Positions 10,795-57,962 of a stretch of DNA of 64,000 nt are shown piece after piece; within the stretch, counting starts at the first letter, position 1; every line of letters starts with the position of its first letter. The translations under genes were made by a program, and so were the position numbers. This DNA is from an uncultured Myxococcales bacterium. Lineage in GTDB: Bacteria > Myxococcota_A > UBA9042 > DTJE01. A model generated the notes under the pieces. The model made no database searches and had not been told where the DNA came from. It saw nothing but the letters and a program-made list of their open reading frames with translations. The stretch is from NCBI GenBank assembly GCA_903857665.1, contig CAIOFV010000159.1, positions 1,894-65,893 of the forward strand, in the 5' to 3' direction.

Positions 10795-10838
10795 GTGCGC
10801 GACGCCCCCGTTGTCGGTGGACGCCGGAGAGGAACGAC

Positions 10839-13387: not shown

Positions 13388-14484
13388 CCATGGGCGAAAC
13401 GAACGGCGGGTACCTGGGCCCGCTGCACCAGACCGTCGCGACGACGGCCACCGACTTCTGGAACGACAGCTGCGCGTCGGACGAACTGGCCGACGCGATG
13501 GTGCACGGTGCGGTGGGCGCCACCACGAACCCGACCATCGTGCTGGAGGTGCTGCGGAAGGAACTGCCGCGGTGGCGGGACCGGATCCTCGCGATGGGCC
13601 GGGAGATGCCGACCGGGTCGGAGGTCGATGTCGCGTGGCGCCTCATCGAGGAGATGGCCGTCGCCGGCGCGCGGCAGTTGATGCCCGTGTTCGAACGCGA
13701 AGGCGGCCGGAAGGGGCGCCTGTCGATCCAGACCAACCCCGAGTGGTACCGGAACGCGCCGGCGCTGGTGGCGCAGGCCGAGCACTTCGCGGGCCTCGCC
13801 CCGAACATGCAGGTGAAGATCCCCGCGACCCGGGCCGGCATCGAGGCGATCGAGGAGGCCACGTTCCGGGGCGTCAACATCAACGCGACGGTCAGCTTCA
13901 CGGTGCCCCAGGCGCTGGCGGTGGGCGAGGCGGTCGAGCGGGGGCTGCGGCGGCGGGAGGCGGAGGGCCGCGAGGTCGCGTCGATGGCGCCGGTCTGCAC
14001 GCTGATGGTGGGCCGGCTGGACGACTGGCTGAAGGTCGTCGCGAAACGGGACGGGATCGTCTGCACGCCCGGCGACCTGGACTGGGCCGGGATCGCGTGC
14101 ATGAAGCGAGCGTATGGGATCTACCGGGAGCGGGGCCTGCGGACGCGCCTGCTGGCTGCGGCGTACCGCCACCATATGCACTGGTCGGAACTGATCGGCG
14201 GCGACGTGATCCTGACGATCCCGCACGCCTGGCAGCGCCTGTTCCACGCGTCGGACATCGAGTGCCGGCCGCGCTTCGACGACCCGGTGGACCCCGCGAT
14301 CCTGGAAGGGCTGTTGCGCCGCTTCCCCGATTTCCGGCGCGCCTACGCGCCCGACGGGCTGTCGGCGGACGAATTCGACGGGTTCGGCGCGACGGCGCGG
14401 ACGCTGCGGGCGTTCCTGGAATCGTACCACCAGTTGCTGGCGCTGGTCCGGGACGTGCTGCTGCCGAACCCGGACCTGGGGTGA
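13384..14484 (+). CDS. transaldolase-family protein (transaldolase / fructose-6-phosphate-aldolase superfamily)
   Basis: ATG overlaps the iolA stop (gcATGAccATG). TATDFWNDSCASDEL...GATTNPTIV and the Schiff-base Lys region QVKIPAT are present. 367 aa. Confidence 0.8.
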   Translation: MTMGETNGGYLGPLHQTVATTATDFWNDSCASDELADAMVHGAVGATTNPTIVLEVLRKELPRWRDRILAMGREMPTGSEVDVAWRLIEEMAVAGARQLMPVFEREGGRKGRLSIQTNPEWYRNAPALVAQAEHFAGLAPNMQVKIPATRAGIEAIEEATFRGVNINATVSFTVPQALAVGEAVERGLRRREAEGREVASMAPVCTLMVGRLDDWLKVVAKRDGIVCTPGDLDWAGIACMKRAYGIYRERGLRTRLLAAAYRHHMHWSELIGGDVILTIPHAWQRLFHASDIECRPRFDDPVDPAILEGLLRRFPDFRRAYAPDGLSADEFDGFGATARTLRAFLESYHQLLALVRDVLLPNPDLG

Positions 14485-14569
14485 CAGGCCTGGGGCAAGC
14501 GGTTCGCAAAGGAACGACAGGTTCGGAGCAGGCCCGGAGAACGAACGCAGGAAAGGAGCAAAAAGCGGA

Positions 14570-15403
14570 ATGGACGAGCACCCGCGACGCATCCGGCACC
14601 CGGAAGGATTCGCGCCCGGCGTGACCCCGATCACGCGCATCGGCGCGGCCCGAGACGACACCGGCATGGACTTCGACATGGTGGTGATGCGGCCGGGCGA
14701 GGTCATCGAGGAAACCTGCGCCCTGGAAACCGCGTGGCTGCTGCTGTCCGGGGAAGCGGCGCTGGCCTGGACGGCTTCCGGGCTTCCAGGAAGTGCGGCG
14801 ACGGTGCGGCGGGACTCGATCTTCGACGAGGATCCGATCGCGCTGCACCTGCCCGTGGGGACGCATGCCCGCGTCGAGGCCCGGTCGGACGTCGAGTGGG
14901 CCCGGTTCCGCACGGCAAACGACGCGGCCTTCCCGGCCACGCTGTTCACCCACGACAACCTGCTGGAGTCCGAGGACCGGGACAAGGGGCTGTGGGGGGA
15001 CGCGGCCTGGCGGATCGTCCGGACGATCTTCGACACGCGCAACCGGCCGACGGCCCGCCTGGTGCTGGGCGAGGTGATCAACTTCCCGGGGCGCTGGTCG
15101 TCCTATCCCCCCCACCACCACCCGCACCCGGAAATCTACCACTACCGGTTCACGGCCCCACAGGGCTATGGCCACGGCGAGCTGGGCGACGAGGTGCTGA
15201 AGGTCCGTGCCCACGACACGGTGCTGATCCTGGACGGCGACGACCACAGCCAGGTCGCCGCTCCCGGATACGGCATGTACTACATCTGGGCCATCCGGCA
15301 CCTCGACGGAAACCCCTACGTCGCCCCGGAATTCACGGCCGAGCACCGGTGGATGAAGGTCCCCGGCGCGACGATGCCCCGCATCGGCAGGAGGAACGGA
15401 TGA
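14570..15403 (+). CDS. iolB: 5-deoxy-glucuronate isomerase
   Basis: 277 aa, KduI/IolB cupin family. RBS AAAGGAG. Preceded by an 85-bp gap; the stop overlaps the iolD start. Confidence 0.8.
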   Translation: MDEHPRRIRHPEGFAPGVTPITRIGAARDDTGMDFDMVVMRPGEVIEETCALETAWLLLSGEAALAWTASGLPGSAATVRRDSIFDEDPIALHLPVGTHARVEARSDVEWARFRTANDAAFPATLFTHDNLLESEDRDKGLWGDAAWRIVRTIFDTRNRPTARLVLGEVINFPGRWSSYPPHHHPHPEIYHYRFTAPQGYGHGELGDEVLKVRAHDTVLILDGDDHSQVAAPGYGMYYIWAIRHLDGNPYVAPEFTAEHRWMKVPGATMPRIGRRNG

Positions 15404-17271
15404 CGACCCGCTTGACCATGGCACAGGCCCTGGTGCGGTTCCTGACGCAGCAGTACGTGGAACGGGACGGGGTCCAGCGCCGCTTCTTCGGCGGCTGCTT
15501 CGGCATCTTCGGCCACGGCAACGTCGCCGGGATCGGGCAGGCGCTGCAGGAGCACCCGGACTTCCCGTTCATCCCCGTCCGCAACGAGCAGGCGCAGGTG
15601 AACGCCGCGGCCGGGTACGCGAGGATGAACAACCGGCTGGGCGCGATGGCCTGCACGTCGTCGATCGGCCCGGGCGCCACGAACATGGTGACCGGGGCCG
15701 CGATGGCGACGATCAACCGCCTGCCGGTGCTGCTGCTGCCCGGCGACATCTTCGCACGGCGTAACGTGGCGCCGGTGCTGCAGCAGTTGGAATCCGAGTC
15801 CGGGCAGGACGTGTCGGTCAACGACTGCTTCCGCCCGGTGTCCCGGTACTGGGATCGGATCGGGCGCCCCGAACAATTGCTGACGGCCCTTCCGGAGGCG
15901 ATGCGGGTGCTGACGTCGCCGGCCCAGACCGGCGCAGTGACGCTGTGCCTGCCCCAGGACGTCCAGGCGGAGGCGCACGACTTCCCGACGGCCTGCTTCC
16001 AGAAGAGGGTCTGGCACATCGCGCGGGCCCGTCCCGACACGGCGGCGCTGGACAAGGCCGCGGCGTGGATCCGCAAGGCCCGGCGGCCGATGATCGTGGC
16101 CGGCGGGGGGGTCATCTATAGCGACGCGACGGATGCGTTGGCCCGGTTGTGCGCCGCGACCGGGATTCCCGTGGGCGAGTCCCAGGCGGGAAAAGGCGCC
16201 CTGTCGTTCGACCACCCGTCGAACCTCGGTGGCGTGGGAGCGACCGGGACCCTGGCGGCCAACCGGGTGGCCCTGGACGCGGACCTCGTCATCGGGATCG
16301 GGACGCGCTACTCCGATTTCACGACCGCGTCCAAGACCCAGTTCCAGGGCCCGGGCGTCCGGTTCATCAACCTGAACGTGGCGGAATTCGACGCATTCAA
16401 GCACGACGGGCTGGCGCTGGTGGGCGACGCCCGGGCGGCGCTGGAAGAACTGGCGACGCGGCTGGCGGGCTGGAAGGTCGATGACGCGTACGCGGCGCTC
16501 TGTGCGGACCTGCGCCGCGAATGGGACACCGAGGCCGCGCGGCTGGTGGCGCCGACCGGAGACGGGCGGATCGGGCAGGCCGAGGTCATCGGGATCATCA
16601 ACGACACGATCCGGCCCGACGGCGTCGTGATCAACGCCGCCGGCAGCGCGCCCGGAGACCTGCACAAGTTGTGGCGGGCACGCCATCCCAAGCAGTACCA
16701 CGTGGAATACGGCTACTCGACGATGGGCTACGAGATCCCTGCGGGGCTCGGCGTCAAACTGGCGGCGCCCGAGAGGGAGGTCGTCGCGCTGGTCGGCGAC
16801 GGGACCTTCCTGATGATGCCGTCCGAGCTGGTCACGGCGGCGCAGGAAGGCCTGCGGATGACCGTCGTGCTGGTGGACAACCACGGCTACGCCAGCATCG
16901 GCAGCCTGTCGGAGTCGCTGGGCAGCGGCGGGTTCGGCTGCCGGTACAGATACCGCGCGGGGGACGGGACCCTGTCGGGCGACGACCTGCGGCTGGACTT
17001 CGTGTCGATCGCGCGCGGGATGGGCGTTCACGCGGTGCGGGCCGAGGACGGCGAGGCGCTGCGGCGCGAGATGGTTGCGGCGCGCGATCGGGAAGGCACC
17101 ACGGTCATCGTGGTGGAGTGCGATCGGGACAAGCACGTCGGCGGCTACGACTCCTGGTGGGACGTCGCGGTCGCCGAGGTATCGACGATGGACGAGGTCC
17201 GGCGCGTCCGGGCCGGGTACGAGCAGGCGGTGCGCAAGGAACGAAACTTCTTCGGGGAGAAGCGAACATGA
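15400..17271 (+). CDS. iolD: 3D-(3,5/4)-trihydroxycyclohexane-1,2-dione hydrolase (TPP-dependent)
   Basis: ATG 15400 lies after GGAGGAACGG. 623 aa with an acetolactate-synthase-like TPP fold (GDGTFLM, GxxGxG). ATGA overlaps on both sides. Confidence 0.85.
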   Translation: MTTRLTMAQALVRFLTQQYVERDGVQRRFFGGCFGIFGHGNVAGIGQALQEHPDFPFIPVRNEQAQVNAAAGYARMNNRLGAMACTSSIGPGATNMVTGAAMATINRLPVLLLPGDIFARRNVAPVLQQLESESGQDVSVNDCFRPVSRYWDRIGRPEQLLTALPEAMRVLTSPAQTGAVTLCLPQDVQAEAHDFPTACFQKRVWHIARARPDTAALDKAAAWIRKARRPMIVAGGGVIYSDATDALARLCAATGIPVGESQAGKGALSFDHPSNLGGVGATGTLAANRVALDADLVIGIGTRYSDFTTASKTQFQGPGVRFINLNVAEFDAFKHDGLALVGDARAALEELATRLAGWKVDDAYAALCADLRREWDTEAARLVAPTGDGRIGQAEVIGIINDTIRPDGVVINAAGSAPGDLHKLWRARHPKQYHVEYGYSTMGYEIPAGLGVKLAAPEREVVALVGDGTFLMMPSELVTAAQEGLRMTVVLVDNHGYASIGSLSESLGSGGFGCRYRYRAGDGTLSGDDLRLDFVSIARGMGVHAVRAEDGEALRREMVAARDREGTTVIVVECDRDKHVGGYDSWWDVAVAEVSTMDEVRRVRAGYEQAVRKERNFFGEKRT

Positions 17272-18170
17272 GCCGGATCCGTGTCGCGAACGCGCCGTGT
17301 TCCTGGGGTGTGCTGGAATTCGATCTGGATGGGCAGGCAAGCGGCGGCGAGCGGGTGCTGTCCGAGATGGCCGCCACGGGATTCGTCGGGACCGAGCTGG
17401 GCGACTGGGGCTTCCTGCCCACCGAGCCTCCGGCGCTGAAGACGATGCTGGACCGCCACGGCCTGGGCATGGTCGGAGCGTTCGTGCCCGTCGCCCTGCG
17501 GGATCCGGCTGCCCACGAGCCGGGCGCGGAAGCCGCCGTGAAGGTGGCTCGCCTGCTGGCCGCCGTGGCCGAGGCGCCGTTCGTCGTGCTGGCCGACGAC
17601 AACGGCAAGGTCCCGGAACGGACCGCCAACGCCGGGCGGATCAAGCCGGCCCAGGGCCTGAGCGACGCCGAATGGACGGTGTTCGCGGCCGGCGCGAACC
17701 GGGTCGCGGCCGCAGTGCGCAAGGAAACCGGCCTGCGGACCGTGTTCCACCACCACTGCGCCGGGTTCGTCGAAACACCCGCCGAGGTGGCGACGTTGCT
17801 GGACCGGACCGACCCGGACCTGGTGGGACTGTGCCTGGACATGGGCCACTACGCATTCGGCGGCGGCAACCCGATGGAGGCGCTGGAACGCTACGGCGAC
17901 CGCATCCGGCACATCCACTTCAAGGACTGCGAGCCTACCGTGGCCGCGCGTTCGCGGGCCGAGAACTGGGACTACTTCACGTCGGTCGGAAAGGGCGTGT
18001 TCTGCGAACTGGGCCTGGGTTCGGTGCCGTTCCCGGCGATCCTGAAGACGCTGCAGCAGCGCGGGTTCGACGGCTGGGTCGTGGTCGAGCAGGACGTGCT
18101 GCCGGGCATGGGCACGCCGCTGGAAAGCGCCCGGCGGAACCGGGAGTACCTGGCGCGGATCGGCCTGTAG
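17268..18170 (+). CDS. iolE: inosose dehydratase (xylose-isomerase-like TIM barrel)
   Basis: ATG 17268 overlaps the iolD stop. 300-aa sugar-phosphate isomerase/epimerase fold, at the IolE position of the operon. Confidence 0.75.
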   Translation: MSRIRVANAPCSWGVLEFDLDGQASGGERVLSEMAATGFVGTELGDWGFLPTEPPALKTMLDRHGLGMVGAFVPVALRDPAAHEPGAEAAVKVARLLAAVAEAPFVVLADDNGKVPERTANAGRIKPAQGLSDAEWTVFAAGANRVAAAVRKETGLRTVFHHHCAGFVETPAEVATLLDRTDPDLVGLCLDMGHYAFGGGNPMEALERYGDRIRHIHFKDCEPTVAARSRAENWDYFTSVGKGVFCELGLGSVPFPAILKTLQQRGFDGWVVVEQDVLPGMGTPLESARRNREYLARIGL

Positions 18171-18245
18171 GACGCGGGCGACGGGCGCCGATCGACGGGG
18201 ATGAAGGATCGTCGCGGCACGGTGCCGCGACTGAAGGAGCAGCGA

Positions 18246-19277
18246 ATGAACATGGCGAACAAGTTCCGGGTCGGCGTAATCGGTGCGGGACGGATCGGCG
18301 TGGTGCATGCCCGGACGATGGCCCGGATCCCGGGCTTCGAGGTGCGGGCGGTGGCGGACCCCGTGGTTGCGGCGGCGGGTCGGCTTGCCGCGGAGCTGGG
18401 CATCCCGACGGCGACGTCGGACTACCGGGAGATCCTGGCGGACCCGGCGATCGACGCGGTGCTGGTCTGCAGCAGCACCGACACGCACGCGGACATCGTC
18501 ATCGCGGCCAGCGCGGCGGGCAAGCACATCTTCTGCGAAAAGCCGGTCGATCTGTCGCTGGAAAAGGTCGATCGGGCCCTGGCCGCCGTGAAGGCAGCCG
18601 GCGTCACCTTCCAGGTGGGGTTCAACCGCCGCTTCGACCCCGACTTCAAGCGGATCCACGACCTGCTGGCCGACGGTGCGCTGGGCACCCCGCACCTGCT
18701 GCGCATCGCCAGCCGGGACCCGAACCCGCCGTCGCCCGAGTACGCGGCCGTGTCCGGGGGCATGTTCCTGGACATGACGATCCACGACTTCGACATGGCC
18801 CGCTACCTGATGGGCTGCGAGGTCGAGGAGATCTACGTCGCGGCGGCCGTGCTGGTGGACCCGGCGATCGGCGCGGCGGGCGACGTCGATACGGCCCTGA
18901 TCACGCTGCGGTTCGAAAACGGGGCGCTGGGCACCATCGACAACTGCCGACGGGCGGTGTTCGGGTACGACCAGCGGGTCGAAGTGCTGGGTTCGAAGGG
19001 CATGGCGGCCAACCGCAACCACGGTCCGGACACCGTGGTCGTGTCCGGCGCGACCCACATCGAGGAATCCCTTCCGCTGAACTTCTTCATGGAGCGCTAC
19101 GTCCCGTCGTTCAAGGCCGAGATCCAGGCCTTCGCGGACGCCGTGTCGTCCAGCACGACGCCTCCGGTGGGCGGCGAGGACGGGCGGCAGGCGCTGCTAC
19201 TGGGTCTGGCGGCGAAGCGGTCCTGGAAGGAGCATCGCCCGGTGCGACTGGCCGAGGTGGACCCGCGGCGCGCGTGA
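18246..19277 (+). CDS. iolG: myo-inositol 2-dehydrogenase (Gfo/Idh/MocA family)
   Basis: ATG 18246 lies 6 nt after AAGGAG. Rossmann motif VGVIGAGRIG plus EKP motif (FCEKP). An earlier in-frame ATG at 18201 has no RBS. Confidence 0.85.
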   Translation: MNMANKFRVGVIGAGRIGVVHARTMARIPGFEVRAVADPVVAAAGRLAAELGIPTATSDYREILADPAIDAVLVCSSTDTHADIVIAASAAGKHIFCEKPVDLSLEKVDRALAAVKAAGVTFQVGFNRRFDPDFKRIHDLLADGALGTPHLLRIASRDPNPPSPEYAAVSGGMFLDMTIHDFDMARYLMGCEVEEIYVAAAVLVDPAIGAAGDVDTALITLRFENGALGTIDNCRRAVFGYDQRVEVLGSKGMAANRNHGPDTVVVSGATHIEESLPLNFFMERYVPSFKAEIQAFADAVSSSTTPPVGGEDGRQALLLGLAAKRSWKEHRPVRLAEVDPRRA

Positions 19278-19338
19278 CGCGACCCGGTCCGCCCCCGCCC
19301 GAGCACGGAGGCTGAACAAGAACACAGGACTCGAACCC

Positions 19339-20178
19339 ATGAAGATCACGTTCATCGGTCACCTGTGCCGGGACATCAACATCATCGACGGCGCTTCCCA
19401 CGCCATGTTCGGGGGGGGCGTCTTCCACAACGGCATGACCGCGAAAGGCCTCGGGGCGAGGCCCACGATCCTGACTCGCTGCGCCGATGCCGATGCCGTG
19501 CCCATGACCCGGGACCTGGTCGCGGCCGGGGTGGAGGTCCGCGTGCGGCCCTCCGTGGCCACGACGTCCATCGAGAACCTGTACCCCGACAGCCACCCGG
19601 ACCACCGCGTCTCAACGCTGCTGGCCCGGGGCGGGCCCTTCGAAACCACCGACGTGGACGCGATCCAGGCGGACGCGGTGCACGTGAACCCGCTGTGGTA
19701 CGGCGAGTTCCCGGTCGATCTGCTGCCGGCGCTGCGGGCCCGCGTGTCGCTGTTGGGTGCCGACGCGCAAGGGTTCCTGCGAACCGCCGACACCAACGGA
19801 CGGCTGGTCCTGAGGGACTGGGCGGACAAGGGTCGGTGGATGCCCCTCTTCGACGTGTTCAAGGCGGACATCACGGAAGCCGAGATCCTCACCGGCACCC
19901 GCGAGATCCAGCCGGCGGCCCGCGCCCTGTACGCGCTGGGGGCCCGGGAGATCGTGCTGACCCACGGGGAGGGTGTCTGCGTGTTCGACGGGGGCACGTT
20001 CTTCGACGAGCCCTTCGGGACCTATTCCCTGTCCGGTCGCACGGGCCGCGGGGACACCTGCTCGGCCGCGTATCTGGTCGGACGCTCGAGGATGGGGGTC
20101 GGGGATGCGGCAACGTTCGCCGCCAAGATCACGTCGCTGAAACTGCAGTACCCGGGACCGTTCCGCGGATTCGGCTGA
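19339..20178 (+). CDS. PfkB-family carbohydrate kinase (candidate 5-dehydro-2-deoxygluconokinase)
   Basis: 279-aa ribokinase-like fold with the C-terminal GAGD-type motif (GRGDTCSAAYL). It is shorter than typical IolC, so the symbol is withheld. Confidence 0.7.
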   Translation: MKITFIGHLCRDINIIDGASHAMFGGGVFHNGMTAKGLGARPTILTRCADADAVPMTRDLVAAGVEVRVRPSVATTSIENLYPDSHPDHRVSTLLARGGPFETTDVDAIQADAVHVNPLWYGEFPVDLLPALRARVSLLGADAQGFLRTADTNGRLVLRDWADKGRWMPLFDVFKADITEAEILTGTREIQPAARALYALGAREIVLTHGEGVCVFDGGTFFDEPFGTYSLSGRTGRGDTCSAAYLVGRSRMGVGDAATFAAKITSLKLQYPGPFRGFG

Positions 20179-20258: not shown

Positions 20259-21044
20259 ATGAAGGTTCGAATGCAACATCAATGGAGTGGCAGGGGGATC
20301 CCGGGCGCCGGGTTCGTCGTGACGGCATTTCTGTTCGCTGCGTGCGGCGGCGGGCAGCAGCACGCGTCGCCGGGCAGCGTCCTGTGCGAACCCTGCACGG
20401 ATTCGTACCAGTGCGCAGCCGGCCTGAGGTGCATCGACTGGCAGTGCGTGGTCGATCGGGGCACGTCCTGCCCGGACCTGAACCCTCCGGACGTCCTCGA
20501 TACCGGCGCGGTGGCCAGGGATCCAGGCGTGGACCCGGGAAACGCCGGACCTCCCGACGTCCCCGAGCGCGACCTGGCGGCCTTCGAGCCCACCTGGACC
20601 GACCCGACGTCGGGCCTGATGTGGGAGAATCCCCCCAGTCCATACGCCCTGTTGTGGCAGCCCGCGATCGACTACTGCCAGGCCCTGGGCCTGGCGGGGT
20701 TCACCGACTGGCGCCTTCCGACCATCAGCGAGCTGCGCACCCTGATCCGGGGCTGCCCGATCGAGGAGACCGGGGGCGGTTGCGCGGTCACCGACCAGTG
20801 CGCGTCGTGGCCCGGCTGCTGGAGCCAGGACTGCCAGGCCTGCAATCCAGGCCAGGTGCCGGCCAACGGCGGGTTCTGGCCCGAAGAAATGGCGGGCGAT
20901 CCCGGGATGTACTGGTCGTCCACGAACCGCTCCGACGACACTACGCAGGCGTGGGCGGTCGCCTTCAACGGCAGCTACATCCTGGCCCCGACCAAGGAAT
21001 GGGGGCTCTGGGAGCGTCGCTGCCTTCGGACCGTGGGACCGTGA
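20259..21044 (+). CDS. DUF1566 (Lcl C-terminal domain) lipoprotein
   Basis: Signal peptide/lipobox FLFAACGGG. MWENPPS...GFTDWRLPTISEL...YWSSTN...AWAVAFNGSY are the DUF1566 signatures. An alternative start at 20271 (MQHQ) is equally possible. Confidence 0.7.
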   Translation: MKVRMQHQWSGRGIPGAGFVVTAFLFAACGGGQQHASPGSVLCEPCTDSYQCAAGLRCIDWQCVVDRGTSCPDLNPPDVLDTGAVARDPGVDPGNAGPPDVPERDLAAFEPTWTDPTSGLMWENPPSPYALLWQPAIDYCQALGLAGFTDWRLPTISELRTLIRGCPIEETGGGCAVTDQCASWPGCWSQDCQACNPGQVPANGGFWPEEMAGDPGMYWSSTNRSDDTTQAWAVAFNGSYILAPTKEWGLWERRCLRTVGP

Positions 21045-21045: not shown

Positions 21046-22602
21046 CTACCGGTGCGCGGACCCGCGCCCCCCGACCACCACGACGTGGTTCGTGATCGCC
21101 AGCAACTCGCCGTCCGCGGCCCACAACTCGACCCGGTAGCGACCCGGGGACCGGACCGTCCATTCGTGGCGGCATTCGAGCCGACGGGGCGGCTCCCACT
21201 GCGCTTCCAGGCGGCCGTCGCGAACCAGGCAGGCCAGCGCGGGCGTCGCATGGGGCCTCGCCAGATCCACGCGAATGGCGGCGGTCCCGCGCGGGGGCAG
21301 CACGACCGTGTCCCCGACATCGCCTTCGCCAACGTCGGTCCGGATCGACAGTTCCAGCGCGGCCCCCCGGGTCAGGAAGACGCGGCCCGCCCGGACCGCG
21401 GCCAGGATCCCCGCCTCGCTGCGGTCGTCGGTCCGCACCGCCGTGACCGGGAACACGACGTCCGCCGTGTCCTCGTGGGCCACGCCGTGCCAGTCCCTGG
21501 CCGCGATCGCAACAGGCTGCAACCCCGCATCCCACAAGCGATCCCACAGTCCCAGCGTCTTGACGATTTCCGCCCGGCGCTGCGCCCAGGCGCCGTACCA
21601 GACCTCGACCAGGTCGAAGCGGTCATACGGCACGCTGCCTTCCCGGAAACGGCACCCCACGCATACCGGTGCGCCGAAGTTGTTCGGGTGAGCCAAACTG
21701 ACCAGAGCCCCTGCCGCCCGCGCCGCGTCGATGGCGTCCACCGTCCGGACCCGCCGGCCCCGGTCTTGCCACGGGTGGCAGCGGTCGATGCCGTACAGGC
21801 AGAAATGGCCGTGGAACGTGGTCAGTTCCTCGCCCCGGATGCGGGTGACCGGCCCGTCCCGGAACTCCGCATGGCCGGACGTGACGTTGTGGTCGGTCAG
21901 CGCCACGAAGTCCAGGCCCATCGCCGAAGCCCGGCGGCCCTGCTCGTCCACCGTGTAATGCCCATCCGAGTGCACGGTGTGGCTGTGCATTTCCCCGTAC
22001 AGCACGCCGGGCAGTCGGGCGCGCTCGACCCGACGGGGCCGGGGCGCCGCGAGCCCGGGGCTCTTCGGACGCGCCGAGCGGGCCTCGGTGGGAGGCACGT
22101 CGTAGGCATCGATCTCCAGCCACGCCTCGGCCTCGTCGGTGAACACCTCCCAGACCTCGACCGCGGCCGTCCAGCGGCCCGCATCCAGCGCGTGGGGCGC
22201 GAAGCCGGGGCTGGCGAAATCGGCGCCCATCCACGCCGGCGGCGGGTCCTCGCGAGTGCCCAGGTCCCAGCGTCCCACCGAGGCGCCTCCGGGCTCGATC
22301 ACCAGCACGTTGAACAGGTTGCGGACGAAGCGCACGGTGCGGTCCAGGTCCCGCGCTTGGAAGAGCCGTTCCTCCTCGCCGGGGACGTCGAAGGGGGTGC
22401 CCCGAAGGTAGTCCTGCGCGGCCGCTTGCACGGCGATACGGTTGCGTTCGCGGTCGCGACTGCCCAGCGGCGAATACCGGAACCGAACCGCGAGGGCGGT
22501 GGTGCCCGGGGGGATGTCGAAGTCCAGGGGTACCAGAGTTCCGGAGTCGCCGGGGTGGAACCGGCCGTGCCAGGAAAGGATCACGCTGCCGCCTTCGCCC
22601 AC
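21046..22602 (-). CDS. PHP-domain metal-dependent phosphoesterase (CehA/McbA-like)
   Basis: PHP motifs GEMHSHTVHSDGHYT, ALTDHN, SLAHPN. GTG start at 22602 lies 6 nt after GGAGGG and coincides with the onset of GC3 bias. The upstream 74 codons of the 22824 ORF are Arg/Pro-rich with poor GC3. Confidence 0.65.
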   Translation of the reverse strand: MGEGGSVILSWHGRFHPGDSGTLVPLDFDIPPGTTALAVRFRYSPLGSRDRERNRIAVQAAAQDYLRGTPFDVPGEEERLFQARDLDRTVRFVRNLFNVLVIEPGGASVGRWDLGTREDPPPAWMGADFASPGFAPHALDAGRWTAAVEVWEVFTDEAEAWLEIDAYDVPPTEARSARPKSPGLAAPRPRRVERARLPGVLYGEMHSHTVHSDGHYTVDEQGRRASAMGLDFVALTDHNVTSGHAEFRDGPVTRIRGEELTTFHGHFCLYGIDRCHPWQDRGRRVRTVDAIDAARAAGALVSLAHPNNFGAPVCVGCRFREGSVPYDRFDLVEVWYGAWAQRRAEIVKTLGLWDRLWDAGLQPVAIAARDWHGVAHEDTADVVFPVTAVRTDDRSEAGILAAVRAGRVFLTRGAALELSIRTDVGEGDVGDTVVLPPRGTAAIRVDLARPHATPALACLVRDGRLEAQWEPPRRLECRHEWTVRSPGRYRVELWAADGELLAITNHVVVVGGRGSAHR

Positions 22603-22708
22603 GCCTTCCCTCCGCGCGTCAGCAGGCACGTCCAGATGCGCGCCAACCGGATTCAGCGCCCACGCCGATGCCGGCGGGCTTCGGCGCGGAACGCCCGCCC
22701 CCCCCGCC

Positions 22709-25700
22709 TCACCGGCAGATGCACGGCATCCGTTCGGCCGGGTAGCCCGGCGGGTAGTTGCAGGCCCAGGCCGGCGCCGGGCCGGCGATGGGCGTGATGC
22801 GGCAGCCCTTCGCGTCCACGCCATCGACGTCCAGGAACACCGGGTTCGTCACGGCGAACGGGAACTGCGGGTAGTACACGGGCACCCGCGGCGACACGAT
22901 GTAGGCCGGCAGCGCCAGCGGCAGCGAGCCGAGCATGCTGCTGAACAGGTCGCCCAGGTATACCGGCGGCAATTCCGACGACCCGTAGACCGGGTTCATG
23001 GCCTTGCCCTTCACGCCCATCGCGAAGACCACGAACCAGGAATCCTGGCCCGGCGAAACGTCCACCGTCGCGTCCAGCGCGACCACGCCGTGGCTGGGGA
23101 CCGCGATGCGGAACTTCGGGTCGGCGGCGTCCACGTCCCATACGTACTCCAGCACGCCGTTGCGGAGCACCTCGACACGGCTCACGTCGAACCAGGACGG
23201 CTTCTGCACGCGGACCCGCAGTGGCACCGACGTCCGGCCGTCCAGCACTGCGGTCTCGCCGGGTCCCTTGCCATCGACGCTCACATCGACGAACGGCCCC
23301 CAGGTCGCGAAGGAATTGCCCCGGCGGTAGGCATGGATCAGGTCGTGTGCGTCGATGGCCGCCGGGTCGTCGGTGGGCACGCGGACGTAGTTCCGCAGGC
23401 AGCCGATTTCGTAATTGGCGATCCCGTGGACGTCGCTGCCACCCACGCCGGGCTTGAAGATGCCGTAGTCCAGCATCCGAAGCCAGTCTTCCGTCATGCC
23501 CTTCACCGAATCGCACGGCATGCCCGGAGGCAGCGAACAGTAGGCATCCAGGCAGTCGTACCCGGCATCGCAGTCGCCGACGGTCGCGCACGGCTTCTTG
23601 CACAGGTTCAGGCCGGGGCTGCACTTCTTCCCGTCCTTGCAGTCCGCGTCGGCGGCGCAACTGGAGGGCATCGAGCAGCTCGCCGTCGGCACGAAGGAAT
23701 GCAGGGCTTCCTGCTCGGCCGGCGTCCGGGTCAGCATCTCCCGCAGGATCTCGCGGCTGGGGGGGGCCATCCGGGCCAGCAGCTTTTCGCGGGGCAGTTC
23801 CTGCACCGAAGCCAGGACCTTCCGCTCCAACACGTTGTAGCGCTCGACCTCGTCGTAGGTGGGCATGCGCGTGATGTCCAGGCGCTTCGAGTTCAGCACC
23901 TCGACGAGGTCGTATTCCTGGGCGAAGTTGGCAGGAACCAGCAGGGGCGTCGACTTCTGGATGCTGCCCGGGTTCAGGGTCAGGTCGAAGGGGCTCTGGC
24001 TGTAGACGTCGTAGTAGCTGGACATGCCGCCGCGCGGGTGCGGGATCGTGACCAGCGTGTCGTCCGCCCCGAACAGCCCCCTCGACCGCATCCAGGCGAA
24101 GATCTCGCGCGGGGTCTTGCCGGTCCAGTTCAGCGCGCCGCCGGCGGACTGGTCGGCGGCCCATTTCAGGGGCCAGCCGATCAGGTGCGAGATGTCGAGG
24201 GTCGTCACCTCTTCGCCGGGCAGCGTCAGCACCCGGTTCTCGAGGTGCATCTGGCGCGCCAGGGGCACCGGGTTGGTGATGAAGTCGTGGTCGGTGATGG
24301 CCATGACATCCAGCCCGTCGGCGACGGCGGTAGTGAGGCGATCGCCCAGCTTCGTCGCAGCGTCCGAGGATCCGGCGGTGTGGACGTGCTGGTCCACGGA
24401 CGCCCAGCCCCGGGTGTCCACGACGCGGGGCACGTACGCCCCAATGTATTCGGTCCGGCCCGGCGACAGGACCACTTCGCGACTGTCGATTTCGCTCTCG
24501 AAGCCGTGGCTGAAGACGACGTCGTACCGTCCCGGCGGCAGGATGATTTCGCCTGTGCCGTCCGCGGACATCGCCATCGCGGCCTTGCGGTCGCTCATGT
24601 AGCCGTCCCCCAGTTCCTCCCGGGGCTCGCCGGCCATCAGCCGGGAGGCGCAGGCGCAGTGCCCGTCGGTGCAGGTCTCGTCGGCGTCACACTCCCCGTC
24701 CGACGCGCACGTCGGCGGGCGGCACTGGAACTCGGCGTCGCACGGCTGACCCTCGGGGCAGTCCGCGGAGGTGTGGCATTCGGGGAAGCAGTGGCCCACC
24801 GTGACGCGCACCCCGACGGGCCGCCCCGCCTCGTCCAGCGCGCGGTAGGTCAGGCGGCCCGCCTCGGGCAGCGACAGCGCAACCCGCGTGGTCCGCCCCT
24901 CGGAAACAACCACGCGCGCCGGCGCAGACAACGGTCCCTTGCCGATTCGCGCCACCAGCCAGTAGGCCCCGGGGATCAGGGACCCGTTGAACCGGCCTTC
25001 CGGGCGGGACTCGGCTGCCGCGTCGGTGCGGAACTGGGTGGCCATCAGGCTCCGGCCATCGGGATTGCCCGGTTCCCGGGTGCACTCGCGGGCGGCCGCC
25101 ACGAGGTCCTCGTAGGTCGGGAAACTGCCGCAGACCGCGGGCACCTGGATGCAGTTCGCGGGGTCGCAGGGATCGGCGATGGCGTAGACGTCGGCCCGGG
25201 TGACCGGGTGGGCGGTCTTGCCGTCCATCACCAGTCCGGACAACTCGCCCGTCTTCGTCCCGCGCAGCTCGTGGATGGCGCGGCTGGCCGACGCGATGTC
25301 CCCCTCGCCAACGGACAGGTACCGGGTGAACTGCACGAACGGCACGTCGTCGCAGGTCGCGTCGTCGGAGGAGTCCTGCAGGCAGTTCAGCCCGTGCGTC
25401 ACGGACCCCGTCAGCGACTCGGTCGCGAACGGGAACAGCACCGCGCCTTCCTTCGAGAAGTAGCCGTAGCTGACCCCGTCGCCGGTGCCGCACAGGAAGT
25501 CGAAGGACAGCGGCGACTTGAGGGCGTTGCGTCCCCGCAGGAAGCCCAGGCGGTACTGCGCGTCGATTTCGAACCCGATCCCGGGGGCGAACGACATCAG
25601 GCTGGACCCGAACAGAGCCATGTCGCCCGCCACGTACCCCGGCTTTCGGTCCAGCGGGACGTCCTCGCCGGCCAGCGCGTTCAGGAGGCCTCCGGACAGG

Positions 25701-26539
25701 ACGTCCAGCAGATCGGTGCCGGGCGCCAGGGCGTTCATCTGGACCGCGCGCGCCAGGCACAGCCCGGACGGCGGGTCGCAGATCGCCGCGCCCGCGCACT
25801 GGCCCGCGGCGTCGCACCGGGGCAGGCAGCCGCCGTAGAAGGCGTCACAGGCAGAACCGTCCGGGCAGGGATGCCGGTCGCACCAGCCGGTGCAGGCGGG
25901 GTCCAGGGCGCAGTCGTCGTCGTCGCAATCGACGGCCCCGTCGCCGTCGTCGTCGGCCTGGTCGGTGCAGTTCGTTTCGGAAACGGCCTTGAAGGTGGTC
26001 GTCATGCGGATGTACGACGCGTCCTTCGGCAGTTCGTAGTCGGTCCGCAGCACGACGTGCGTGACGACGCCCAGCATGTTGGCCTGGTCCATCAGGTTCA
26101 GCAGGGACAGCACCCGGTCGCCGCGCCCGGTCACGCGCACGACCGCCGTGGACCCGTCCGGCGCGGTGAACGCCTCGACCTGCCCCTGTTCGGGATGGGG
26201 GACCTGCAGGTTCGCGAACGGCAGCAGCAGGTAGAACTGGTCCAGGCCGTGACCGGCCCGGTACTGCTCCCAGGGCCGCACCAGGTCCGCATCGACCAGC
26301 GCGCCGCCCCAGAGGGCCGGGCTGGCAGCGTGGCCCGCGTCCAGGATCACGGCGCGAATATGCGAATTCTGCAGCACCCAGTCGCCGACGTCGCCGTACT
26401 GCTTGATGCCGCCGGGCAGTTCGGACCGGGACTCGATGCGCCGAGCCGTCGAGGGCGGATTGACGTCGGCGCACCCGGAAGCCAGGAACCCGGCGATCGC
26501 CAGCAGTAGCACCCTCGGAACCCAGGCAGACGCACGCAT
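22709..26539 (-). CDS. giant (1277 aa) PHP-domain lipoprotein with Cys-rich and MopE-like inserts
   Basis: ATG at 26539 (MRASAWVPRVLLLAIAGFLASGCAD; lipobox) overlaps the upstream porin stop (cTGATGc). PHP motifs VDQHVHTAGSSD, AITDHDF, GGSDVHG. Cys-rich modules CTDQADDDGDGAVDCDDDDC and CAADADCKDGKKC. The 1740-aa track ORF extends upstream through the porin gene in another frame and is an artefact. Confidence 0.75.
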   Translation of the reverse strand: MRASAWVPRVLLLAIAGFLASGCADVNPPSTARRIESRSELPGGIKQYGDVGDWVLQNSHIRAVILDAGHAASPALWGGALVDADLVRPWEQYRAGHGLDQFYLLLPFANLQVPHPEQGQVEAFTAPDGSTAVVRVTGRGDRVLSLLNLMDQANMLGVVTHVVLRTDYELPKDASYIRMTTTFKAVSETNCTDQADDDGDGAVDCDDDDCALDPACTGWCDRHPCPDGSACDAFYGGCLPRCDAAGQCAGAAICDPPSGLCLARAVQMNALAPGTDLLDVLSGGLLNALAGEDVPLDRKPGYVAGDMALFGSSLMSFAPGIGFEIDAQYRLGFLRGRNALKSPLSFDFLCGTGDGVSYGYFSKEGAVLFPFATESLTGSVTHGLNCLQDSSDDATCDDVPFVQFTRYLSVGEGDIASASRAIHELRGTKTGELSGLVMDGKTAHPVTRADVYAIADPCDPANCIQVPAVCGSFPTYEDLVAAARECTREPGNPDGRSLMATQFRTDAAAESRPEGRFNGSLIPGAYWLVARIGKGPLSAPARVVVSEGRTTRVALSLPEAGRLTYRALDEAGRPVGVRVTVGHCFPECHTSADCPEGQPCDAEFQCRPPTCASDGECDADETCTDGHCACASRLMAGEPREELGDGYMSDRKAAMAMSADGTGEIILPPGRYDVVFSHGFESEIDSREVVLSPGRTEYIGAYVPRVVDTRGWASVDQHVHTAGSSDAATKLGDRLTTAVADGLDVMAITDHDFITNPVPLARQMHLENRVLTLPGEEVTTLDISHLIGWPLKWAADQSAGGALNWTGKTPREIFAWMRSRGLFGADDTLVTIPHPRGGMSSYYDVYSQSPFDLTLNPGSIQKSTPLLVPANFAQEYDLVEVLNSKRLDITRMPTYDEVERYNVLERKVLASVQELPREKLLARMAPPSREILREMLTRTPAEQEALHSFVPTASCSMPSSCAADADCKDGKKCSPGLNLCKKPCATVGDCDAGYDCLDAYCSLPPGMPCDSVKGMTEDWLRMLDYGIFKPGVGGSDVHGIANYEIGCLRNYVRVPTDDPAAIDAHDLIHAYRRGNSFATWGPFVDVSVDGKGPGETAVLDGRTSVPLRVRVQKPSWFDVSRVEVLRNGVLEYVWDVDAADPKFRIAVPSHGVVALDATVDVSPGQDSWFVVFAMGVKGKAMNPVYGSSELPPVYLGDLFSSMLGSLPLALPAYIVSPRVPVYYPQFPFAVTNPVFLDVDGVDAKGCRITPIAGPAPAWACNYPPGYPAERMPCICR

Positions 26540-27864
26540 CACAGGTTCACCTGGAACTGGAGGAAGAGCACGTCGTTCTTCAGTTCGGGGACCTTCCGTT
26601 CGCCCCGATGCTGGTAGTTCAGCTGCGCCTTCAGGTAGCCGTCCAGCAGGTACACGTTGATGCCGCCGGTGGCCAGCCACATGTCGCCCGCGTCGGACAC
26701 GTGGCGGTGGTCGTCGTACCACTCGTAGCGGGCCGCCAGTTCCAGCAGGCGCGGCACGACGAAGTAGCCGGCCTGGGCATAGAAGGCCAGGCGGTCCGTC
26801 GTGGACGGCAGCGACGTCGGCGCCACCGGCGCGTTCATCGGTTCGCGGCGATCCCAGATCACCTCGCCCATCAGGCTCAGTCCGCGCCACTTCAGGGCCA
26901 CGTCGGCGCTGGCCGCGTGGGTCCGGATCGACGCGTCCTCGCTGTAGTAGTAGTCGCCGCCGACCGCGAACCGGATCGGGGACTGCTCGTAGTCGGATTC
27001 GCCCGGGGCCATGCGGCCCAGCGGCGCGACCTGAAGGCGCGCGGCGTACAGGAACCCGCGATCCAGCGGCCCCAGGCCGTAGCGCCCCGGCTGGCCGTTG
27101 TAGATGCCCGTCGCGTACTCGAGGATGCCGCCCGCCAGGGTCCCCAGCGCCGCGAAGCCCAGCTGGGAGCCCGGCACGATGCGCTGGATCGACATCGGGC
27201 GCTCGATCATCTGCAGGCGCGACGAGGACGTGTAGGCGCCGCGCGAGAAGGGCAACGGGGCCGTGCCGAGCGCCAGGTTCAGGAAGCTGAACGGCTTGTA
27301 CAGCAGCGTGGCCGTGGACAGCGTGGTCCCGCCGGACTCCTGGTCCTTCACGTCGATGACCAGGCTGATGCCCAACTGGTCCCGGTACGAACCATAGAAG
27401 CCGACGCGGGCGCGCCGCAGCCGGAACCCCTCGGCGCTGGCCGGGTCGCCGTTGTCCACCAGCGCGTCCTTCTGGACGTAAGTCGCCACCTGGGCCTGGA
27501 CCAGCAGGTTCACCGCGAGGGAGGTCCGGTTGTCCCAGTCCAGACGGAACGCCTCGTGCCCCTTGTTCGGGTGCTCGTAGATTTCGCGGACTGCGTCTGA
27601 TTCGGGCTTCGGGGAAGCGGCCGGCGACGGCGCGGCGGCGGCCAATTGCGCAGGCTGCGCGACGGGGGCAGACTGTGCGACCGGGGCGGGAAGCGCGACC
27701 GGGGCGGGAAGCGCTGCGGCGGTCGCGGGCGACTCGGGCGCCGCCCGGGCCGGAGTCGGGATCGCGGACGGCGTGGCCTCGGCGGAAGGCGGAGGCACCT
27801 GGGCCAGCGCCCCGCCGGCGTACAGCAGGATGAGCCCCGCGATGAATGGCCGTGTCCCGAGCAT
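26539..27864 (-). CDS. outer-membrane beta-barrel porin, phosphate-selective porin O/P-like
   Basis: ATG at 27864 lies 5 nt after GGGGAGG. Signal peptide MLGTRPFIAGLILLYAGGALA-QV. Ala/Pro-rich linker. Amphipathic beta-strands including FRLRRARVGFYGSY and a C-terminal aromatic-rich strand (LFLQFQVNL). Family assignment is by motif resemblance only. Confidence 0.55.
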   Translation of the reverse strand: MLGTRPFIAGLILLYAGGALAQVPPPSAEATPSAIPTPARAAPESPATAAALPAPVALPAPVAQSAPVAQPAQLAAAAPSPAASPKPESDAVREIYEHPNKGHEAFRLDWDNRTSLAVNLLVQAQVATYVQKDALVDNGDPASAEGFRLRRARVGFYGSYRDQLGISLVIDVKDQESGGTTLSTATLLYKPFSFLNLALGTAPLPFSRGAYTSSSRLQMIERPMSIQRIVPGSQLGFAALGTLAGGILEYATGIYNGQPGRYGLGPLDRGFLYAARLQVAPLGRMAPGESDYEQSPIRFAVGGDYYYSEDASIRTHAASADVALKWRGLSLMGEVIWDRREPMNAPVAPTSLPSTTDRLAFYAQAGYFVVPRLLELAARYEWYDDHRHVSDAGDMWLATGGINVYLLDGYLKAQLNYQHRGERKVPELKNDVLFLQFQVNL

Positions 27865-28034
27865 GATGCCTCCCCGCCCTTGCGGCCGCTTTGCCGCCGC
27901 GATGATAGCCGATCGAAATGGGCGATTCCACGATTTCCGAAAACGTTTGCTAAACGATTTCACCGCCTGGGATGGGCTTGATCGGGTGGCGGGCATCTGC
28001 CACCATCACCCGGTCTGGCGAAGGTGCCGAAGCG

Positions 28035-29060
28035 ATGACCATCCGCGGGGCCGGGCTGATGCGAACGATGCTGTTCGTGGCCTTTTCGGGAACCCTGTCG
28101 TTGGCAGCGTGCGGGACTTCGACCGGTGCGCTGGACGCGGCCCCGGACCTCCACCAGGACGTGGCGCCCGACGCGATCGCCGACCCGGACGTCGCCTCCG
28201 ACGCACTCCCGGACGTCGCGCCCGATGCCGCTCCCGACACGTTCGCGGACCCGGACGTCGTGACGGGCCCGATGCAGCTGGTCGTGATGACCTTCAACCT
28301 CCGCAACACCTGGGGGCAGGACGGCGTCAACATCTGGGACAACCGCCTTCCGCTGGCCCTGAAGGTGATCCACGACGCCGCGCCGGACGTCCTGGGGACG
28401 CAGGAGGCGATCTTCAACCAGGTCGACGACCTCGCGGCGGGCATGCCGGGCTACGACCACGTGGGCCGGATCCGCACGGAAAGCCCGCTGGACGAGGCCA
28501 ATACGATCTTCTATCGGGCCGACCGGTTCGAGCACATCGCAGACGATTCGTTCCAGTTGAGCGACACGCCGGACGAGATCGGTTCGATGTTCTCCGCCAA
28601 CCAGAACTGCGCCCGGATCGTCACGTGGGTCCACCTGCGGGAGCAGTCCAGCGGCCGCGAGTTCGTCGCCTTCAACACCCACTTCGACACCGAATCCGTC
28701 GATGACATCCAGGTGCGCAGCGCGGCGCTGACGATCACCCAGATGGCGACGATCCGGGCGGGGCTGCCCGCCTTCCTGTCCGGCGACTTCAATTCCACGC
28801 CGGGCTCGGATCCCTGGAAGGTGCTGACGGGCGAAAAAACCTGGAACGGCGTGACCGGCGACCTGATCGATCCCTGGGCCGAGCTGCACTTGCTGGAGCA
28901 GGGTACATCCAGCGGGTTCACCGACACGGCGACACGGCGGATCGACAACGTCTTCCACGTCCCCGGCGTGCGGGCGACCCGCGGGACCGTGATCCAGTAC
29001 CACGAGGGCGACGTCTTCACGTCGGACCACTTCCAGGTGGTGGTCGGCCTGGAATTCTGA
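28035..29060 (+). CDS. endonuclease/exonuclease/phosphatase (EEP)-family lipoprotein
   Basis: MTIRGAGLMRTMLFVAFSGTLSLAACG gives a lipobox, followed by an acidic PD-rich linker. EEP motifs NTWGQDG, GTQEA, FNTHFD, GDFNS, TSDHFQV. Confidence 0.75.
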   Translation: MTIRGAGLMRTMLFVAFSGTLSLAACGTSTGALDAAPDLHQDVAPDAIADPDVASDALPDVAPDAAPDTFADPDVVTGPMQLVVMTFNLRNTWGQDGVNIWDNRLPLALKVIHDAAPDVLGTQEAIFNQVDDLAAGMPGYDHVGRIRTESPLDEANTIFYRADRFEHIADDSFQLSDTPDEIGSMFSANQNCARIVTWVHLREQSSGREFVAFNTHFDTESVDDIQVRSAALTITQMATIRAGLPAFLSGDFNSTPGSDPWKVLTGEKTWNGVTGDLIDPWAELHLLEQGTSSGFTDTATRRIDNVFHVPGVRATRGTVIQYHEGDVFTSDHFQVVVGLEF

Positions 29061-29076
29061 TCGGGGAGGCGGCTTC

Positions 29077-30921: not shown

Positions 30922-30963
30922 GACGCTCCGGTTCCGGCGACCCTTCTTGCAGCGAGGCCCCGC

Positions 30964-36216: not shown

Positions 36217-36328
36217 TCCAACCCCCCGGCACGAAAGGCCGCCATGCGCGGCCCGGGGCGATCCTAGGCCAGGTGACAACGAACCGGAAGCCGGGCCTTC
36301 GGGCGGCAAGACGCGGGCATCGACAGGT

Positions 36329-57952: not shown

Positions 57953-57962
57953 CACGCACCTC

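Follow-up and report, generated by a model that had tools for sequence, protein, structure and literature searches.

In soils and lakes, organic phosphorus is for the most part tied up in phosphates of sugars, inositol and polymers, and to our knowledge only a handful of phosphatase classes can release it. Two described systems come close to the locus reported here. In scavenging under the Pho regulon, an OprP or OprO channel is combined with an extracytoplasmic phosphatase (PhoA, PhoX or PhoD) and an importer for inorganic phosphate. In the yeast α-mannan loci of Bacteroides thetaiotaomicron, the mannose-6-phosphatase BT3783 acts with GH92 enzymes and the GH38 enzyme BT3774 on phosphorylated high-mannose yeast glycans (Cuskin et al. 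2015, PMC4978465). Here we describe a gene module in a 64,000-nucleotide stretch of DNA from an uncultured Myxococcales bacterium (contig CAIOFV010000159.1; this whole stretch is called the window below). On the minus strand the module consists of an OprP-family (Porin_O_P) outer-membrane channel, a giant lipoprotein with a PHP phosphoesterase domain and a small cytosolic PHP enzyme; a divergent operon facing them encodes an EEP-family lipoprotein, an SGLT-type sodium:solute symporter and a GH38 α-mannosidase. The reading that we favour, tentatively and at a little under an even chance, is that the module scavenges phosphorylated glycosides at the cell envelope, stripping off the phosphate and importing the products.

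With Pho-type scavenging the module shares an OprP-family channel combined with a predicted extracytoplasmic metal-dependent phosphoesterase, and in some of its relatives an importer for inorganic phosphate (PHO4 with PhoU_div) lies in the same string of genes. However, the fold of the module enzyme is PHP, unlike that of alkaline phosphatase, PhoX or PhoD; the protein is also four to five times larger and includes a β-supersandwich of the sugar-enzyme type together with three Cys-rich modules. Moreover, the genes for porin and enzyme are translationally coupled and occur together in 48/48 loci, and the module is tied to a sugar symporter and to cytosolic glycosidases. With the yeast-mannan loci it shares a BT3783-homologous EEP lipoprotein beside a GH38 enzyme, and a logic in which phosphate would be removed from mannose-phosphate glycans in the envelope before the mannoside is cleaved. 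In contrast to those loci, its GH38 enzyme is of the cytosolic Ams1 type and not periplasmic, uptake would proceed through a porin and an SGLT-type symporter, and its dominant PHP phosphoesterases are without a Bacteroides counterpart. No SusC/SusD, GH76, GH92, GH99 or GH125 gene was present among the neighbouring genes scanned with Pfam. Given the different enzyme fold, the lack of these mannan-locus components and the Ams1-type GH38, the module belongs to neither system as defined.

Individual proteins of the module also have described relatives. The ~80-kDa enzymes CehA and McbA hydrolyse carbaryl and come from pesticide-degradation contexts; unlike them, the giant PHP protein has a split barrel, an extra 700-residue N-terminal region, a lipid anchor and an obligatory porin partner. 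Two-domain PHP proteins have been solved as well (PDB 3e38 and 2anu), for which we know of no function. The cytosolic GH38 enzymes Ams1 of yeast and Bl_Man38A/B of Bifidobacterium longum match the window GH38 over its full length, and as in Bifidobacterium the window enzyme, which is without a signal peptide, would act on imported mannosides. It differs from them in being coupled to an SGLT-type symporter and PHP enzymes rather than to ABC importers for N-glycan fragments.

An initial annotation of the window had placed three minus-strand open reading frames between 21046 and 27864, and all three are present there (Table 1). The window has a G+C content of about 70%, and real genes in it can be recognised by a G+C content at third codon positions (GC3) of 0.86-0.95. 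The module frames have GC3 values of 0.86-0.94, which, together with the existence of homologues and the preserved gene order, argues that they are more than chance. The porin gene starts with an ATG at 27864, 4 nucleotides behind the ribosome-binding site GGGGAGG. Its stop overlaps the lipoprotein start in CTG-TGATG, with one A shared by ATG and TGA, so the translational coupling noted at the outset is real; a second candidate start for the lipoprotein, a GTG one codon upstream of the ATG, likewise overlaps the porin stop. Counted from the ATG, the giant protein has 1276 residues and not the 1277 annotated, and it is indeed a lipoprotein. The start given for the third gene, 22824, had to be abandoned, as it would overlap the lipoprotein gene by 116 nucleotides and is unsupported by homologues. 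The most likely start is instead a GTG at 22602, which lies behind a GGAGGGAAGG site, leaves a gap of 106 nucleotides after the lipoprotein stop and yields a protein of 518 residues identical to the database gene call P0028.

To judge from its conserved lipobox cysteine and 44 further cysteines, the giant lipoprotein is an extracytoplasmic enzyme. We aligned it with its homologues (21 homologues, 31-100% identity). The lipobox is LASGC (N-terminus LLAIAGFLASG-C23), and Cys23 is kept in 19/21 homologues; it is followed by the supersandwich, transthyretin-like and Ig-like domains, the split PHP domain, a further Ig-like domain and a C-terminal tail with a CxC end. The split of the PHP domain, already proposed in the initial annotation, is borne out: the HxH/DHD half lies at residues 716-756 and the C-terminal half of the CehA/McbA domain at 1015-1185, with a helical and 10-Cys insert between them. 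The metal site is intact, in that nine residues (H718, H720, D726, H751, E777, H785, H834, D1036 and H1038) are invariant in the 21 sequences. We take these nine to be the one-to-one ligands of the trinuclear PHP site seen in histidinol-phosphate phosphatase and related structures; judged by this alignment, the lipoprotein carries a complete nine-ligand PHP metal site of the order HxH, D, H, E, H, H, DxH.

Profile searches agree with this assignment to different degrees. The lipoprotein matches the CehA/McbA profile NF038032 with 111.3 bits in two stretches (cut-off 80), and the small PHP enzyme matches it with 187.5 bits over model positions 5-310 of 315. Against Pfam PHP (PF02811) both remain below the gathering score of 26.4, with 23.0 bits for the lipoprotein and 24.8 bits for the small enzyme, in matches that cover the first 42-46 model positions only. 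Searches of solved structures by sequence gave marginal matches for both PHP proteins. Two AlphaFold2 models, both confident, were built from the 21-homologue alignment, one for residues 640-1276 (predicted local distance difference test, pLDDT, 79.6; predicted template-modelling score, pTM, 0.86) and one for residues 24-700 (pLDDT 85.4, pTM 0.86). The first contains the distorted (βα)7 barrel of the PHP fold, and its structural neighbours include EndoQ, RNase AM, pAp phosphatase and polymerase PHP exonuclease domains.

The N-terminal domain (residues ~24-470) is a galactose-mutarotase-like β-supersandwich with many invariant polar residues. Such supersandwiches are typical of carbohydrate-active enzymes, namely glycosidases, lyases and mutarotases. 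Even at E<=1, Pfam assigns no family to the supersandwich (25130-26470) or to the N-terminal domain of the small PHP enzyme (22003-22602), and a search with the lipoprotein N-domain alone returned only fragments of the giant-PHP family. Both domains, of about 450 and 200 residues, are thus candidates for new domain families. Of the 45 cysteines in the lipoprotein, 32 fall into three modules with a spacing of 5-6 residues. Module 1 contains 12 cysteines and 23% Asp+Glu; module 2, with 10, lies between two β-sandwich domains; and module 3, also with 10, lies within the PHP barrel after the helical insert. The label MopE-like for the acidic Cys modules is not supported, as the Pfam family Cu-binding_MopE (PF11617) was not detected at E<=0.1. 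The acidic module 1 instead gives weak matches to the acidic double-disulfide repeat NF033662 (25.1 bits, cut-off 41) and to a teneurin C-rich domain (E 1.4e-4). The C-terminal tail (residues 1246-1276, window 22709-22800) contains an invariant C1273-x-C1275 and an invariant C1260 in 21/21 homologues; metal binding, disulfide formation and sorting are conceivable roles for this tail.

The channel had been described as phosphate-porin-like, and it does belong to Porin_O_P: PF07396 matches with 47.2 bits (cut-off 20.9) over model positions 17-365 of 370. The protein begins with a signal peptide, followed by an Ala/Pro-rich linker of ~75 residues and the β-barrel. A search of solved structures with the single porin sequence did not find OprP, so that a family profile was needed for this match. 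With a profile of 28 porin family members, the best PDB match is OprP (2o4v, E 1.4e-5), with only ~115 residues aligned. In this alignment, OprP R59/R60 correspond to the conserved RR of the porin family motif GFRLRRARxG. In the family R31 is near-invariant and R33 invariant, and the other positions of the arginine ladder fall outside the ~115-residue region that can be aligned with OprP. The channel is a small barrel of the general-diffusion type, and small anionic fragments or phosphate are more likely than a polymer to pass through it.

The pairing of the channel with the giant PHP lipoprotein is the most constant feature of the module. A word-indexed search gave 27 relatives of the lipoprotein, mostly from Myxococcota including Sorangium, and an exhaustive HMMER search gave 3165 cluster representatives at E<=1e-3, 469 of them at E<=1e-30. 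Throughout the family, database names are 'hypothetical', absent or the generic CehA/McbA label. For the study of gene context, exact look-ups supplied 13 loci and an alignment-based scan of metagenomes a further 80; a single-sequence scan of genome contigs had given two loci only. We regarded a locus as testable if its match to the giant PHP protein reached at least 300 bits and its upstream flank was readable. In all 48 testable loci, a Porin_O_P-like gene lies within 600 nucleotides of the 5' end of the giant PHP gene: 41 loci have it immediately 5' in the same orientation, typically with gaps of -19 to +80 nucleotides, and seven have it in divergent orientation. Below 300 bits a porin was detected in 11/30 loci. 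The pair is present in Sorangium, at 34% identity. Because the channel matches Porin_O_P and the genes are conserved together, the initial grouping withstands the two objections that its author had foreseen. One variant locus, L012 (8001-16407), encodes a giant PHP protein of 1976 residues with a porin upstream, followed by a NicO/DsbD_2-type membrane protein and a HAD hydrolase, neighbours that hint at dedicated metal supply or disulfide handling.

Further genes accompany the pair in closer relatives. In the closer clade (>=44% identity), an SGLT-type symporter and the small PHP enzyme are found with it in most loci. The small PHP gene lies together with the module in the window and in L001, L004-L006, L010, L011, L014 and L015; in the closer clade it follows the symporter, except that in the window, L004 and L014 it follows the giant PHP gene instead. 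The symporter gene is directly 3' of the giant PHP gene in L001, L003, L005, L006, L010, L011 and L015. A GH38 gene adjoins the module in L001, L006, L009, L010, L011 and L015, and glycosidases are attached to it in at least five arrangements. The GH38 proteins of L009, L010 and L011 are only 25-31% identical to that of the window, against 37-56% for the other module proteins, which indicates a different GH38 lineage. In L005 the same operon position is occupied by a GH37 trehalase homologue (17126-18313); assignments of this glycosidase to GH63 or to the mannosylglycerate hydrolases were considered and rejected. Two non-orthologous GH38 lineages, only 25-30% identical to each other, and the GH37 enzyme together point to an independent recruitment of α-glycosidases. 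In one sub-lineage, seen in L011 (497-2184), L015 (5728-7622) and the P0011 contig, genes for PhoU_div and a PHO4-family phosphate importer come immediately before the porin gene in the same orientation. The earlier three-gene unit stands as a set of genes conserved together, and its limitation to three does not, because the symporter and GH38 also belong to it. Toxin-antitoxin pairs (HicA/HTH_31, PIN/PhdYeFM) were seen between module genes in L006 (9814-10403 and 12173-12828) and L011 (9259-9675).

The small PHP enzyme had been called cytoplasmic-looking, and a signal peptide is lacking both in it and in its homologues. PHP metal-ligand motifs are visible in it, behind an N-terminal domain of ~200 residues that matches no Pfam family. 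A distant homologue (31% identity) shares its operon with an ABC sugar importer, a GH2 enzyme, an esterase and two sulfatases, a pattern that would be expected of an enzyme stripping decorations from imported sugars.

The symporter and GH38 genes of the window sit opposite the porin gene in a divergent operon (28035-33960) that begins with the EEP lipoprotein. The latter has a lipobox, LSLAAC, an Asp/Pro-rich linker and a Pfam Exo_endo_phos domain, and its start agrees with the database gene call. Among solved structures it matches 4c1r, the 'mannosyl-6-phosphatase' BT3783 of B. thetaiotaomicron (E 2e-25), and 3g6s (E 3.8e-32). By sequence it is a BT3783 homologue, with a putative mannose-6-phosphatase activity. 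The best PDB matches of the symporter are vSGLT (8.5e-23) and SGLT1/2. The GH38 enzyme, encoded two genes downstream of the EEP lipoprotein, has the Pfam GH38 N-terminal, middle and C-terminal domains and Ams1-like_1st; over its full length it matches Ams1 with E values of 1e-177 to 3e-194 and Bl_Man38 with 1e-163 to 1e-170. Its identification as a mannosylglycerate hydrolase (MngB) was rejected at 112 bits against a cut-off of 1138.

An operon for myo-inositol catabolism (iol) is convergent on the PHP operon. Its gene order is a LacI-family regulator (10840-11909), an IolA-like Aldedh protein, a TAL_FSA aldolase, IolB, IolD, IolE, IolG and a PfkB/IolC-like protein. IolD (TIGR04377, 896 bits, cut-off 715) and IolG (TIGR04380, 449 bits, cut-off 355) are above their thresholds, IolE with 198 bits is under its cut-off of 290, and KduI/IolB, Aldedh and PfkB domains are present; on these profile matches the operon appears complete, with equivalents of IolD, IolG, IolE, IolB, IolA and IolC. 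The motif AANCGTTTGC occurs in three copies in the 64 kb against 0.2 expected, and at least three copies were found in 0/100 shuffles. All three lie in the two relevant promoter regions. Two tandem copies of this operator-like motif, CG[TA]AA[GTA]CGTTTGC, are at 10762-10795, just 5' of the LacI-family gene, and the third is inside a LacI-type operator-like near-palindrome, GAAAACGTTTGC, at 27939-27950 (site 27937-27952) in the divergent region that separates the porin gene from the EEP gene. This shared motif suggests that the iol operon and the module promoter may belong to a common regulon. The site in the divergent region is intact in L014 (3067-3080) and was not found in the other related loci searched (L001-L011). 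The divergent intergenic region (27850-28050 in the window, 2960-3180 in L014) is 93% identical, whereas amino-acid identity in the flanking proteins is 84%, so the control region seems to be under unusually strong constraint. The gene order of L014 (84% identity), with SSF-EEP divergent, porin-giant PHP-small PHP, and iolC-iolE-iolD convergent, mirrors that of the window.

These observations can be combined into a mechanism for the scavenging of phosphorylated glycosides. The porin and the lipoprotein, produced together through translational coupling, would be the invariant core. The porin would admit small anionic sugar-phosphates to the periplasm, or would take up phosphate released by the enzyme. 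The lipoprotein, either periplasmic or tethered to the surface, would remove the phosphate, its galactose-mutarotase-like domain holding the sugar moiety while the trinuclear-metal PHP centre hydrolyses the phosphate ester. In this lineage, the SGLT-type symporter would then take up the neutral product, most likely an α-mannoside and possibly a mannosyl-inositol, the cytosolic CehA-type PHP enzyme would remove any remaining ester group, and the Ams1-type GH38 α-mannosidase would cleave the glycoside. In the window genome and L014, the BT3783-like lipoprotein would serve as a second envelope phosphatase, and the adjacent iol operon would consume any released inositol. As to the substrate in this lineage, α-mannoside phosphates appear to be the most likely class, although our confidence in any single substrate is far below that in the scavenging function itself. 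Fungal phosphomannan and phosphorylated N-glycans are candidates, and given the iol link we add the mannosyl-inositol-phosphate head-groups of inositol-phospholipids. Thus a pathway, which the initial annotation had declared itself unable to assign, can be proposed from the N-domain, the glycosidase and symporter partners, the BT3783 homologue and the iol operon.

Several of our findings weigh against this reading. The family is large and entirely uncharacterised. CehA and McbA, which gave the CehA/McbA family its name, are carbamate hydrolases and not phosphatases. The porin is no more than a putative phosphate-selective channel, its OprP alignment being limited to ~115 residues, and a promoter and terminator scan, itself uninformative, identified neither a Pho box nor a promoter for the module. 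SGLT-type transporters are known for carrying neutral solutes, which makes a cytosolic phosphoesterase downstream of one an awkward fit. No locus other than the window and its near relative L014 was seen to have the EEP gene and the iol linkage; iol linkage is absent from L001, L004-L011 and L015. In L004 (80% identity), the closest relative with long flanks, the three-gene operon stands alone in an unrelated neighbourhood, with no SSF, GH38, EEP or iol genes within 10 kb. The distant clade, which comprises Sorangium and many soil and water contigs, has the porin and the giant PHP protein only, without sugar genes, which makes the sugar-salvage part lineage-specific; clustering of flanking open reading frames in this clade gave no further conserved partner, only generic kinases, short-chain dehydrogenases/reductases and unannotated frames. 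The ancestral role may have been phosphate acquisition alone.

That phosphate acquisition is also the present role, with the lipoprotein as a broad-specificity envelope or surface phosphatase in the place of PhoA, PhoX or PhoD, the porin importing the phosphate and the sugar genes being secondary, is an explanation that we consider unlikely but still of real weight. It would account well for the porin and giant PHP protein as the sole invariant unit, alone in the distant clade, for the homology of the porin to OprP and for PhoU_div and PHO4 directly upstream in some loci. However, a conserved supersandwich of ~450 residues with many invariant positions argues for a defined, glycan-like ligand, and a symporter between the PHP genes and the repeated independent recruitment of glycosidases are difficult to account for if the organic product does not matter. 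Use of inositol phosphates or phytate, in which the polyanion would enter through an OprP/OprO-like channel, the giant PHP enzyme would be phytase-like, and inositol would be imported by an SGLT/SMIT-like symporter for iol catabolism, is in our view quite improbable. SGLT-family transporters include inositol carriers, and the window symporter falls in the SGLT branch; an anion-selective porin would suit a polyanion, PHO4 is linked in other loci, and the complete iol operon adjoins the module, is syntenic in L014 and has the operator-like motif in common with it. Yet this linkage is confined to one lineage (window and L014), the recurrent GH38 and GH37 partners would have no role in phytate use, and no sequence or fold likeness to any phytase class was seen in the structure searches.

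The initial annotation had thought of a phosphorylated polymer such as nucleic acid or polyphosphate. Scavenging by a channel and an envelope phosphoesterase is upheld by the 48/48 pairing and by Porin_O_P, whereas such a polymer as the substrate is disfavoured by the sugar-type partners. Import and degradation of nucleic acid or polyphosphate, with the PHP enzymes as nucleases or nucleotidases, would agree with the PHP barrel neighbours EndoQ, RNase AM, pAp phosphatase and the polymerase exonuclease domains. OprO-type porins pass pyrophosphate and polyphosphate, and this family trait would fit as well. We nevertheless regard this explanation as very improbable, since nucleoside or nucleotide transporters and nucleic-acid-binding domains are lacking, the accessory domain is of a glycosidase type and every recurrent partner is a sugar-handling gene. 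To the same slight degree we would credit the idea that the enzymes are not phosphoesterases at all and, like CehA and McbA, hydrolyse carbamate, carboxyl-ester or amide groups that decorate imported glycosides or xenobiotics. Both proteins score above the NCBIfam cut-off for CehA/McbA and just under the gathering threshold for Pfam PHP, and the distant homologue of the small enzyme lies beside an acetyl-xylan or glucuronoyl esterase and sulfatases. Against this stand the invariant nine-ligand trinuclear site, which is typical of phosphoesterases, the pairing of the enzymes with an OprP-family channel and PhoU/PHO4, and the sugar-phosphatase homologue encoded in the divergent unit. Genes for carbamate or naphthol catabolism did not turn up among the neighbours scanned. 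Taken together, the supersandwich, the glycosidases, the symporter, the BT3783 homologue and the iol operon favour phospho-glycosides of the mannoside or inositol type over nucleic acid or polyphosphate, and hence the scavenging of phosphorylated glycosides.

Our literature searches gave no description of a pairing between a porin and a giant PHP protein. A bolder version of our proposal, which we hold to be distinctly unlikely, is that the pair is an unrecognised and widespread machine by which Myxococcota of soil and fresh water mineralise organic phosphorus, with a PHP enzyme docked to an OprP-type channel, and represents a new structural class of glycan- or inositol-phosphate phosphatase, extended here to the mannosyl-inositol-phosphate head-groups of fungal or actinobacterial glycolipids. 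Phytase-like enzymes, or phosphodiesterases acting on phosphomannan or inositol-phosphoglycans, would be examples of such a class. If true, a porin-docked PHP-fold phosphatase of this kind would add a new participant to the phosphorus cycle. In any case, this family without a characterised member offers a specific candidate, open to experimental test, for a new class of enzymes in that cycle, and a candidate route by which predatory or saprophytic Myxococcota could feed on phosphorylated cell-surface glycans. It also provides a first functional context for the generic annotation 'CehA/McbA family metallohydrolase' and for two domains without a Pfam family. Furthermore, the locus would be a case of sugar utilisation outside Bacteroidota in which a BT3783-type phosphatase and GH38 are reused with a different uptake logic.

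Table 1. Features of the module and the adjacent iol operon, in window coordinates.
Feature	Position	Strand	Evidence
OprP-family (Porin_O_P) outer-membrane channel, 441 residues	26539..27864	-	Pfam PF07396, family profile, ribosome-binding site
Giant PHP lipoprotein, 1276 residues, core enzyme (predicted)	22709..26539	-	Pfam/NCBIfam, alignment, fold models
N-terminal galactose-mutarotase-like β-supersandwich, residues ~24-470, with Cys-rich acidic insert	25130..26470	-	
Cys module 1, residues 191-261, TSP3-like or acidic double-disulfide-like motif	25757..25969	-	
Cys module 2, residues 584-630	24650..24790	-	
PHP barrel, N-terminal part, residues ~710-840, ligands HxH, D, DHD, E, H, H	24020..24412	-	
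Cys module 3, residues 955-1009	23513..23677	-	
PHP barrel, C-terminal part (D1036, H1038), and Ig-like domain; C-terminal half of CehA/McbA domain	22985..23497	-	
Cytosolic CehA/McbA-type PHP hydrolase, 518 residues	21046..22602	-	NF038032, ribosome-binding site, homologue N-termini
Divergent regulatory region, porin operon versus EEP-SSF-GH38 operon	27865..28034	.	
EEP-family lipoprotein, BT3783 homologue	28035..29060	+	Exo_endo_phos, PDB matches
SGLT-type sodium:solute symporter, 614 residues	29077..30921	+	Pfam SSF, PDB matches
Ams1/Man2C1-type GH38 α-mannosidase, 998 residues	30964..33960	+	Pfam GH38, PDB matches
myo-Inositol catabolic (iol) operon	10840..20178	+	TIGRFAM and Pfam matches

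Other genes of the window surround these features. Between the iol operon and the 3' end of the small PHP gene lies a plus-strand gene (20271-21044) for a Cys-rich lipoprotein of 257 residues with an Lcl_C domain (PF07603), and this region is kept in L014. A minus-strand frame of 98 residues (20672-20968) was rejected as a gene, being the antisense shadow of this lipoprotein gene. Convergent on the GH38 gene is a GH31 glycosidase (33991-36387, minus strand), whose closest solved relatives are the α-xylosidase YicI and Lmo2446. The segment 36329-42914 contains a cluster for aromatic amino-acid biosynthesis (chorismate mutase/prephenate dehydrogenase, 3-deoxy-D-arabino-heptulosonate 7-phosphate synthase, an aminotransferase and chorismate mutase/prephenate dehydratase) together with a threonine dehydratase, and seems unconnected with the module. 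The same seems to be true of a polysulfide- or thiosulfate-reductase-like cluster at 56250-62240 on the minus strand, which comprises a molybdopterin oxidoreductase with a twin-arginine translocation signal, an NrfD-type membrane subunit and a sulphur transport protein.

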